DNA of 20,033 nucleotides, taken from NCBI RefSeq assembly GCF_003334315.1, contig NZ_QOWR01000069.1. One strand, given 5' to 3'. Made by a program: the position numbers and the translations under genes. Positions within the stretch are counted from its first letter, which is position 1, and each line of letters starts with the position of its first letter. Origin of the DNA: Escherichia coli (lineage in GTDB: Bacteria; Pseudomonadota; Gammaproteobacteria; Enterobacterales; Enterobacteriaceae). Below the pieces are notes generated by a model that saw only the letters and a program-made list of their open reading frames with translations, was not told the origin of the DNA and made no database searches. Below are positions 9,030 to 20,033 of this stretch, one piece after another.

Positions 9030-9176
9030 GATTCGCCTGAACATGCCCTTTTTTCGTAAGTAAGCAACATAAGCTGTCACGTTTTGTGATGGCTATTAGA
9101 AATTCCTATGCAACAACTGAAAAAAAATTACAAAAAGTGCTTTCTGAACTGAACAAAAAAGAGTAAAGTTAGTCGC

Positions 9177-9285
9177 GTAGGGTACAGAGGTAAGATGTTC
9201 TATCTTTCAGACCTTTTACTTCACGTAATCGGATTTGGCTGAATATTTTAGCCGCCCCAGTCAGTAATGACTGGGGCGTTTTTTA
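9177..9285 (+). ncRNA. spf: Spot 42 small regulatory RNA
   Basis: Sequence gtagggtacagaggtaagatgttctatctttcagacc... ending in the terminator hairpin ccccagtcagtaatgactgggg plus T-run, recognised as Spot 42; -10-like taaagt at 9164-9169. Confidence 0.9.
9195..9242 (+). CDS. spfP: 15-aa small protein encoded within Spot 42 (SpfP-like), MFYLSDLLLHVIGFG
   Basis: ATG at 9195 preceded by AGAGG; 15 sense codons then TGA, translated by hand. A dual-function Spot 42 peptide has been reported. Confidence 0.5.
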   Translation: MFYLSDLLLHVIGFG

Positions 9286-10313: not shown

Positions 10314-10556
10314 ATAGAGCGAGGACGCTAACAGGAACAATGACTCAGGATGAGGGTCAGGAGCGCCAGGAGGCGAAGACAGAGGATTGTCAGGAAGACA
10401 AACGTCCGGAGACGTAATTAAACGGAAATGGAATCAACACGGATTGTTCTGGCTAATGGAAAAACAGGGTGTGTTGGCGGCCTGCAAGGATTGTAAGACC
10501 CGTTAAGGGTTATGAGTCAGGAAAAAAGGCGACAGATTACTCTGTCGCCTTTTTTC
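10314..10556 (+). ncRNA. csrC: CsrC, CsrA-sequestering sRNA
   Basis: About 243 nt with 14 GGA triplets, mostly as AGGA/CAGGA, far above chance; -10-like taaagt at 10301-10306; ends in terminator aaaaaaggcgacag...ctgtcgcctttttt; sits between engB and yihI. 5' end approximate. Confidence 0.85.
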
Positions 10557-10624
10557 TTTGCTTGCTTTCTGTTAGATTCCGCCGCAAATCTATACTGAAT
10601 AAAACGGCTAAAAGACGAACCATT

Positions 10625-12739: not shown

Positions 12740-12760
12740 CAATGTGCTGAGAACAAGATT

Positions 12761-12797
12761 GCCTGATGCGGCGCTGGTCGCGTCTTATCAGGCCTAC
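12761..12797. repeat. REP element
   Basis: gcctgatgcggcgctggtcgcgtcttatcaggcctac, a classic REP palindrome shape. Confidence 0.7.
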
Positions 12798-17350: not shown

Positions 17351-17439
17351 CGCACCATCGTGCAAAAGGGCTGCACCACGATGTGAATGTTGCACCAATA
17401 TAGTGCTTCAATGGAAACATTAAGCACCATGTTGGTGCA
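17351..17439 (-). promoter_or_regulatory. Cluster of NtrC enhancer binding sites upstream of glnAp2
   Basis: Repeated TGCACC/GGTGCA half-sites: tgcaccaatatagtgct (17391-17407), agcaccatgttggtgca (17423-17439), weaker copies at 17351-17388. Confidence 0.65.
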
Positions 17440-17590
17440 ATGACCTTTGGATAACCCTTTTTATGCTCCGTGAAAGCGATCACAAAGGGACTCTGCAATA
17501 CTTGTTTGCGGAGGATGTTTGTGATCCTGTTTTGTAGTGCGATTAATCCGTGTACAATAACGCGCTATTTCTAATGCCTGAGGCAAAGTT

Positions 17591-19414
17591 GTGATCGAAA
17601 AATTGCGTAATATCGCCATCATCGCGCACGTAGACCATGGTAAAACCACCCTGGTAGACAAGCTGCTCCAACAATCCGGTACGTTCGACTCTCGTGCCGA
17701 AACCCAAGAGCGCGTGATGGACTCCAACGATTTGGAGAAAGAGCGTGGGATTACCATCCTCGCGAAAAACACCGCTATCAAATGGAATGATTACCGTATC
17801 AACATCGTTGATACCCCGGGGCACGCCGACTTCGGTGGTGAAGTTGAACGTGTAATGTCCATGGTAGACTCAGTGCTGCTGGTGGTTGACGCATTTGACG
17901 GCCCGATGCCGCAAACGCGCTTCGTAACCAAAAAAGCGTTTGCTTACGGCCTGAAGCCGATTGTTGTTATCAACAAAGTTGACCGCCCTGGCGCGCGTCC
18001 TGATTGGGTTGTGGATCAGGTATTCGATCTGTTCGTTAACCTCGACGCGACCGACGAGCAGCTGGACTTCCCGATCGTTTACGCTTCTGCGCTGAACGGT
18101 ATCGCGGGTCTGGACCACGAAGATATGGCGGAAGACATGACCCCGCTGTATCAGGCGATTGTTGATCACGTTCCTGCGCCGGACGTTGACCTTGACGGTC
18201 CGTTCCAGATGCAGATTTCTCAGCTCGATTACAACAGCTATGTTGGCGTTATCGGCATTGGCCGCATCAAGCGCGGTAAAGTGAAGCCGAACCAACAGGT
18301 CACTATCATCGATAGCGAAGGCAAAACCCGCAACGCGAAAGTCGGTAAAGTGCTGGGCCACCTCGGTCTGGAACGTATCGAAACCGATCTGGCGGAAGCT
18401 GGCGATATCGTGGCGATCACGGGCCTTGGCGAACTGAACATTTCTGACACCGTTTGCGACACGCAAAACGTTGAAGCGCTGCCGGCACTCTCCGTTGATG
18501 AGCCGACCGTTTCTATGTTCTTCTGCGTTAACACCTCGCCGTTCTGCGGTAAAGAAGGTAAGTTCGTAACGTCTCGTCAGATCCTGGATCGTCTGAACAA
18601 AGAACTGGTACACAACGTTGCGCTGCGCGTAGAAGAAACCGAAGACGCCGATGCGTTCCGCGTTTCTGGTCGTGGCGAACTGCACCTGTCTGTTCTGATC
18701 GAAAACATGCGTCGTGAAGGTTTCGAACTGGCGGTATCCCGTCCGAAAGTTATCTTCCGTGAAATCGACGGTCGTAAACAAGAGCCGTATGAAAACGTGA
18801 CGCTGGACGTTGAAGAACAGCATCAGGGTTCTGTAATGCAGGCGCTGGGCGAACGTAAAGGCGACCTGAAAAACATGAATCCAGACGGTAAAGGCCGCGT
18901 ACGTCTCGACTACGTGATCCCAAGCCGTGGTCTGATTGGCTTCCGTTCTGAGTTCATGACCATGACTTCCGGTACTGGTCTGCTGTACTCCACCTTCAGC
19001 CACTACGACGACGTACGTCCGGGTGAAGTGGGTCAGCGTCAGAACGGCGTACTGATCTCTAACGGTCAGGGTAAAGCGGTCGCGTTCGCGCTGTTCGGTC
19101 TGCAGGATCGCGGTAAGCTGTTCCTCGGTCACGGTGCAGAAGTTTACGAAGGTCAGATTATCGGTATTCATAGCCGCTCTAACGACCTGACTGTAAACTG
19201 CCTGACCGGTAAGAAACTGACCAACATGCGTGCTTCCGGTACTGACGAAGCCGTTGTTCTGGTTCCGCCTATCCGCATGACTCTGGAACAAGCTCTGGAG
19301 TTCATCGATGATGACGAACTGGTAGAAGTGACCCCGACCTCTATCCGTATTCGTAAACGTCACCTGACGGAAAACGATCGTCGTCGCGCCAACCGCGCAC
19401 CGAAAGACGATTAA
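17591..19414 (+). CDS. typA: Ribosome-associated translational GTPase BipA/TypA
   Basis: 607 aa, GTG start with GAGG SD; G-domain motifs [18 protein letters not shown]; EF-G-like domain architecture. Confidence 0.97.
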
Positions 19415-19431
19415 TTTCGTTTTTTAGTCAT

Positions 19432-19464
19432 AAAAAACCTGCCAGCGATGGCAGGTTTTTTTTT
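19432..19464 (+). terminator. Rho-independent terminator of typA
   Basis: A-run, stem cctgcca / tggcagg with 4-nt loop, then nine T. Confidence 0.85.
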
Positions 19465-19630
19465 GCCTGTCGTGAGCACTCAGCAATGCGAGTATCTCCC
19501 TTATAAGTCTGTGGTTACGTCAATAGAGAGCTTTGTCACAATTATCTGCAAAGTCATACGCCGTTAATTGCTTTCTTTTTTGGCGTAAGCGTAAGATGCC
19601 TCATCTGGTTTAAACCAAAAGGATTAAACA

Positions 19631-19652
19631 ATGGCGGAGAATCAATCCACCG
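19631..19652 (+). pseudogene. 5' stub (7 codons, MAENQST) of the gene downstream of typA, interrupted by IS1; possibly the yihL equivalent
   Basis: ATG at 19631 preceded by AAGGA SD (7-nt spacer); reading frame runs straight into the IS1 left end. Host gene identity is from remembered gene order only. Confidence 0.35.
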
Positions 19653-20033
19653 GGTGATGATGCCAACTTACTGATTTAGTGTATGATGGTGTTTTTGAGG
19701 TGCTCCAGTGGCTTCTGTTTCTATCAGCTGTCCCTCCTGTTCAGCTACTGACGGGGTGGTGCGTAACGGCAAAAGCACCGCCGGACATCAGCGCTATCTC
19801 TGCTCTCACTGCCGTAAAACATGGCAACTGCAGTTCACTTACACCGCTTCTCAACCCGGTACGCACCAGAAAATCATTGATATGGCCATGAATGGCGTTG
19901 GATGCCGGGCAACCGCCCGCATTATGGGCGTTGGCCTCAACACGATTTTCCGCCATTTAAAAAACTCAGGCCGCAGTCGGTAACCTCGCGCATACAGCCG
20001 GGCAGTGACGTCATCGTCTGCGCGGAAATGGAC
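19653..20033 (+). mobile_element. IS1 insertion sequence, left end and first 381 bp (truncated by window end)
   Basis: Left inverted repeat ggtgatgatgccaacttactgat; insA lies at element positions 56-331 exactly as in IS1; A6C frameshift motif ttaaaaaac at 19957-19965. Confidence 0.92.
19708..19983 (+). CDS. insA: IS1 InsA (transposition inhibitor / N-terminal part of InsAB' transposase)
   Basis: 91 aa, GTG start; zinc-finger-like CPSC...CSHC motif and HTH region ([21 protein letters not shown]...). Confidence 0.92.

Follow-up and report, generated by a model that had tools for sequence, protein, structure and literature searches.

The typA-yihL boundary and the IS1 end

The stretch of Escherichia coli DNA considered here, referred to throughout as the window, is 20,033 nt long and runs from a repeated terminator region (positions 1-60) just after the rrnA 5S rRNA gene to a point inside an IS1 element; it may represent a whole contig of a short-read draft assembly, bounded by repeats. 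At its right-hand end lie typA with its terminator, the first codons of a second gene and the left part of the IS1 (Table 1). The hairpin of the typA terminator occupies 19432-19461 and its U-run reaches 19464, the fold of 19415-19475 being valued at -20.4 kcal/mol (z = -4.06 against shuffled sequences). The Rfam family STnc370 matches across the typA stop codon and the terminator (19399-19467) with 55.6 bits, barely above its gathering score of 54. The terminator is absent from the output of a consensus terminator scan, probably because its stem runs on into A/U runs. Other Rfam matches in the window were ES222 in the typA leader (17402-17509), CsrC and Spot 42, and the matches at 17402-17509, 10314-10567, 9167-9285 and 19399-19467 are all expected for this region of E. 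coli. The terminator is followed by a spacer of 166 nt, and the start codon of the next gene is the ATG at 19631. An earlier note, written from the sequence alone, had read this boundary as a typA terminator followed by a Shine-Dalgarno-preceded ATG at 19631, and both the terminator and the Shine-Dalgarno sequence were found as it supposed.

Table 1. Features at the right-hand end of the window (window coordinates)
Feature	Position	Strand	Basis
typA/bipA coding sequence (607 aa), upstream neighbour	17591..19414	+	ORF list; identical RefSeq DNA is typA, WP_000570668.1
typA intrinsic terminator: 13-bp hairpin (GC core 19438-19455), then U-run	19432..19464	+	folding
yihL Shine-Dalgarno sequence AGGA, 7 nt 5' of the ATG	19620..19623	+	direct reading
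yihL remnant: first 22 nt (MAENQST and base 1 of codon 8)	19631..19652	+	K-12 and ES6 alignments stop at 19652
AATCCACCG, the 9 bp duplicated if the insertion was simple, left copy	19644..19652		analogy with three 9-bp duplications in yihL elsewhere
Left 381 nt of IS1 (IS1B/C-like), cut by the window end	19653..20033	+	381/381 against many copies
Left inverted repeat (IRL), 23 bp, variant A at 19660 (position 8)	19653..19675	+	22/23 against IRL of K-12 IS1A/B/C
Promoter-like ATGCCA-16 nt-TATGAT within the IS1 end	19660..19687	+	consensus scan
insA, 91 aa, GTG start	19708..19983	+	ORF list
AAAAAAC (A6C) motif	19959..19965	+	direct reading

Alignments of the window with K-12 MG1655 and with strain ES6 are uninterrupted as far as 19652 and go no further, and in both genomes this position is base 22 of annotated yihL; 19631-19652 corresponds to bases 1-22 of that gene in ES6 and K-12, and the preceding intergenic region is colinear. 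The earlier note had proposed that the gene downstream of typA is disrupted by an IS1 that starts at 19653, after only seven codons, and had left the gene to be named by aligning the flank to K-12: that alignment, once run, identified it as yihL, a conserved gene joined to IS1 after 22 nt, and the stop of both flank alignments at 19652 places the break where the note had put it. MAENQST also held as a true N-terminus, as the annotated yihL product begins with MAENQSTVENAK in K-12, REL606, ES6 and others, where the gene is uninterrupted (in its longer form, the K-12/ES6 annotation gives MAENQSTVENAKEK). Read on from the yihL ATG, the fused frame in the window encodes MAENQSTG and then meets a TGA stop at 19655-19657.

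What has been lost is a regulator. Intact YihL of ES6 matches PhnR/HutC-type GntR models below their equivalog cutoffs, with PhnR as the best NCBIfam match, and intact YihL is a GntR/HutC-type regulator; only seven of its codons are left in the window, and the GntR winged-helix and UTRA effector domains are absent. The window yihL is a destroyed gene and not a functional member of the family. YihL is counted among the E. coli transcription factors of unknown function (PMC9308461). The gene is dispensable, because the Keio deletion yihL::kan serves as a neutral co-transduction marker that leaves reporter values unchanged (PMC4759930). The start of yihM lies 7 nt past the yihL stop codon, which suggests that yihL and yihM belong to one operon.

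The insertion sequence begins at 19653 as GGTGATGATGCCAACTTACTGAT, and an IS1-family terminal inverted repeat (about 23 bp, GGTGATGCTGCCAACTTACTGAT) is present at its left end at 22/23 positions. As the window stops at IS1 position 381, all identity figures refer to the left half of the element only: at 381/381 positions 19653-20033 equals the IS1 copies of no fewer than 30 genomes, ATCC 8739 and ETEC H10407 among them (704 bits, E = 0), and the IS1 of strain ES6 likewise matches at 381/381, whilst K-12 IS1B and IS1C agree at 379/381 and IS1A at 376/381. The match across IS1 and yihL is far beyond chance. InsA differs from K-12 InsA1 by one residue (F for L) and is recognised by NCBIfam NF050000, the IS1/IS1595 zinc-binding domain, at 41 bits (cutoff 28); NF033558 (transpos_IS1) reached 90 bits against a cutoff of 100 because the InsA part alone was scored. 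The promoter-like site at 19660-19687 is presumably the known pIRL promoter of insA, and we take the AAAAAAC at 19959-19965 to be the site of the programmed -1 frameshift by which insB' is fused to insA. RefSeq tags the transposases of identical elements as 'programmed frameshift'.

One base of the inverted repeat deserves separate mention. Position 8 (19660) is A in the window and C in K-12 IS1A, IS1B and IS1C, which bears out the earlier note's tentative statement that a C belongs here. The variant is a real minority allele and not a sequencing error: of 9312 records with an IS1 match, 363 contain the exact 60-mer with A8, next to a variety of genes and also on plasmids, and the allele is therefore carried by copies that have moved. 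A8 is not obviously disabling for IS1. It forms the first base of the -35-like hexamer (ATGCCA instead of CTGCCA), where neither base matches the consensus T. Strain 2018-11-3CC also carries A8; its IS1 was considered as the same copy and rejected on account of four differences within 381 nt.

Strain background and distribution of the junction

The 19652-nt flank of the IS1 is identical to that of ES6 at 19651 of 19652 positions, apart from one 91-bp indel, and some 25 further ordinary E. coli isolates from human, poultry and environmental sources come almost as close. Its identity is 99.1-99.8% to K-12 and 99.3-99.6% to REL606. The earlier note had suspected an IS1-rich background of the E. 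coli B or Shigella type, and this stands in part. IS1-rich relatives do exist, with at least 39-40 IS1 matches per record in ES6, RCAD0514, HS30-1 and 2018-11-3CC and a median of 10 per genome. An origin in E. coli B is rejected, as yihL of REL606 is intact and its flank only 99.3-99.6% identical, and nothing suggests an origin in Shigella, the flank being near-identical to that of ordinary E. coli.

The sole base difference from ES6 in 19.6 kb lies at window 2420, in codon 243 of srkA, where ATA replaces ATG and SrkA carries M243I. This exact protein allele is found in at least 24 public contigs, among them GCA_050371975.1 and GCA_035821755.1; in two draft contigs with SrkA M243I (L028 and L029), the 10-kb flank ends at hemN, short of yihL. 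The indel lies at window 12760-12770, in the hemN-yshB spacer, where 91 bp found in ES6, K-12 and most genomes are missing from the window; a copy of TGCCTGATGCG, within REP-type repeats, lies on either side of the loss. The same deletion junction is common to 18 complete genomes, four of which were retrieved and, at about 105 mismatches over 19.6 kb, prove to be of another lineage. The deletion has apparently occurred more than once, and as a marker of close relatives it was rejected: it is recurrent, and hence uninformative.

The earlier note had also stated that the K-12 reference has no IS1 at this locus and had held the insertion to be probably strain-specific. Both expectations were borne out, with yihL intact in K-12 as in E. 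coli B REL606 and the exact yihL-IS1 junction found by megablast in 0 of 5426 complete E. coli genomes. A 601-nt junction query retrieved 30 records with at least 80% query coverage, none of them contiguous, every match being split in two, with the IS1 part lying another 365-800 bp downstream; neither a 120-nt junction query nor a synthetic query with the IS1 reversed at yihL base 22 gave a contiguous match in the same 5426 genomes. An exact 46-nt junction pattern, with N at the variant base, had no match in JGI metagenome contigs or in GTDB representative genomes. The junction appears to be confined to this strain or its near relatives.

Whilst the exact junction is private, the neighbourhood has been struck by IS1 many times. 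In about 40 of the 5426 complete genomes an IS1 lies within yihL or next to it, over ten different sites being used and none of them that of the window: the element lies in the same orientation within about 0.8 kb after the yihL start in 30 genomes, in the opposite orientation in seven and in the typA-yihL spacer in three. Ten genomes with a same-orientation IS1 left end in yihL were sampled and both flanks of the element mapped to K-12. Three of these are simple insertions with a 9-bp duplication (at yihL +472, +482 and +525); in the other seven the right side is not yihL, being instead yihN (at three different points), yihR (at two), the yihQ-yihR spacer or a gene foreign to K-12, with 1.4 to about 9 kb of DNA missing. 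Two of the seven have a common left junction at yihL +432 and different right sides, which is a signature of nested IS1-promoted deletions. In most of the sampled cases an IS1-bounded deletion has taken away yihM/yihN, and often the sulfoquinovose genes as well.

Similar arrangements recur in individual strains. Close relatives of the window read yihM / IS1 / yihW' (ES6), yihN' / IS1 / yihR (RCAD0514), yihM+54 / IS1 / yihU (2018-11-3CC) and yihN+201 / IS1 / yihQ (HS30-1), whilst in the near-identical relatives cM2a and BL12 the locus is intact. Further cases are TUM9812 (yihL+297 / IS1 / ...yihX) and CP53, where an IS1 in the typA-yihL spacer is joined to yihR. In AVS0366, fragments of ompL split by IS1 stand directly after typA, with no yihL, yihM or yihN annotated, and two further genomes whose search rows are identical to those of AVS0366 probably have a similar arrangement; the yihL-yihM-yihN block seems to be present in some E. 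coli and not in others. A literature search on IS1, yihN and deletion found nothing. It is conceivable, if rather doubtful, that the typA-yihX segment (yihLMN, ompL and the sulfoquinovose genes yihO-yihW) is a hot zone for IS1, or that its loss is favoured by selection, such that independent IS1 insertions and deletions lead to convergent loss and the window is one more case of it.

Origin of the junction

IS1 transposase is the InsAB' frameshift product, which acts on the inverted repeats of the element; simple insertion generates 9-bp duplications, intramolecular transposition generates deletions or inversions, and IS1 insertions are polar. IS1-promoted deletion of adjacent DNA by intramolecular transposition was reportedly described by Reif and Saedler in 1975 and by Turlan and Chandler in 1995. 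Against this background, the reading we favour, with a probability of roughly 0.9, is that transposase joined the left end of an ordinary IS1 (IS1B/C-like, with A8) to base 22 of yihL and so produced a null yihL allele. The element is predicted to be competent for transposition, and it would have reached its yihL target either as a new insertion or, from a nearby copy, by intramolecular transposition; the lineage is an IS1-rich one of E. coli in which the element has struck the typA-to-yihX segment repeatedly. Translation from the intact Shine-Dalgarno sequence and ATG would give MAENQSTG and end at the TGA inside the inverted repeat. The yihM and yihN genes, if they still lie downstream, would probably be under-expressed, given presumed polarity and a presumed operon. 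The expected outcome is loss of YihL function, presumably with no obvious growth phenotype.

The junction is known from one assembly and only one end of the IS1 lies inside the window, which leaves two routes to it that we regard as about equally likely, yihL being destroyed by either. By the first, to which we would give slightly less than an even chance, a complete 768-bp IS1 sits within yihL and is followed by a second AATCCACCG, the rest of yihL (TAGAAAATGCAAAAGAG...), yihM and yihN; the expected right junction would read ...AAGTTGGAGTCATTACC/AATCCACCG/TAGAAAATGCAAAAGAG..., the right end of IS1 leading into AATCCACCGTAGAAAATG. VL40, PEC422 and 14EC047 show that such insertions happen elsewhere in yihL, each with a 9-bp duplication, the untouched locus of the near-identical cM2a and BL12 offers a possible starting point, and the A+T content over the 60 bp surrounding the target is 60%, IS1 being known to prefer AT-rich targets. 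Telling against a simple insertion is that just three of the ten sampled IS1 copies with a left end in yihL arose in this way. The other route, on which we would again wager a little short of half, is that base 22 of yihL was attacked, by intramolecular transposition, from a resident IS1 lying downstream in the yihM-yihW interval, and that the intervening DNA was deleted or inverted, with the element duplicated on inversion. The remainder of yihL would then be missing or inverted, perhaps together with yihM, yihN and the sulfoquinovose genes, and no 9-bp repeat would flank the IS1. This is the pattern of the seven sampled genomes in which the right flank is not yihL, including the two whose shared left junction at yihL+432 points to nested deletions, and four of the six close relatives examined carry an IS1-bounded deletion here (ES6, RCAD0514, 2018-11-3CC and HS30-1). 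In ES6, moreover, the IS1 that matches at 381/381 positions lies about 1.7 kb downstream in the opposite orientation, and an inversion from an ancestor of that kind would give the orientation observed. However, the right junctions in the other genomes all differ, such that no common anchor copy can be assumed, and across the genome most IS1 copies are simple insertions. As most comparable IS1 junctions at this locus are deletion edges, the AATCCACCG repeat may not exist.

Two further explanations were weighed. An assembler might have attached IS1 wrongly to the end of a contig, with yihL in reality intact, and there are grounds for the suspicion: the window starts in the rrn terminator region and ends in IS1, both of them repeats, as is typical of draft contigs, and the junction is in no other sequence searched, whether complete genomes, metagenome contigs or GTDB representatives. 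Yet the flank gives way to IS1 precisely at base 1 of the inverted repeat, as in real transposition, where a chimera would break at an arbitrary point, and real IS1 junctions are common at this locus; we consider an artefact very improbable. The remaining alternative, an ancestral intergenic IS1, was the one that the earlier note had set against its own reading, with MAENQST starting no gene or a reference genome carrying IS1 at the same place. It is refuted: yihL beginning with MAENQSTVENAK is annotated without interruption in K-12, REL606, ES6 and others, and no complete genome of the 5426 has the junction.

Significance and comparison with known IS1 copies

The event is routine, a known element having struck a non-essential target by a known mechanism, and its importance beyond annotation is small. 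The proper annotation for this strain would be a yihL pseudogene and a partial IS1. The junction could act as a clone-specific marker, since it is absent from all other public sequences searched. More generally, an IS1 end that abuts a gene at this locus is not to be assumed to be a simple insertion, most of the neighbouring examples being deletion edges. A by-product of some wider interest is that IS1 appears to have eroded the yihL-to-yihW segment again and again within E. coli, which would bear on how often the species discards its sulfoquinovose pathway.

Set beside known systems, the junction resembles the IS1 insertions of VL40, PEC422 and 14EC047, which share its gene, element, orientation and outcome (a yihL pseudogene) and differ in position, lying at yihL +482, +472 and +525 rather than +22, and in that their 9-bp duplications are observed. 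The IS1-bounded deletions between typA and yihX in 22F46, GPEC1405, G5, CUWW06 and CP53 likewise have an IS1 left end abutting a truncated yihL, as in the window. As for the element itself, K-12 IS1B and IS1C (insA2/insB2 and insA3/insB3) share its 23-bp inverted repeat with the promoter inside it, its 91-aa InsA and its A6C site, whereas the window copy has A for C at position 8 of the repeat and C for T at position 127, and lies at another location. The A8 copies in ES6, ATCC 8739, ETEC H10407 and HS30-1 match it at 381/381 positions, A8 included, but occupy other loci, none of them base 22 of yihL.
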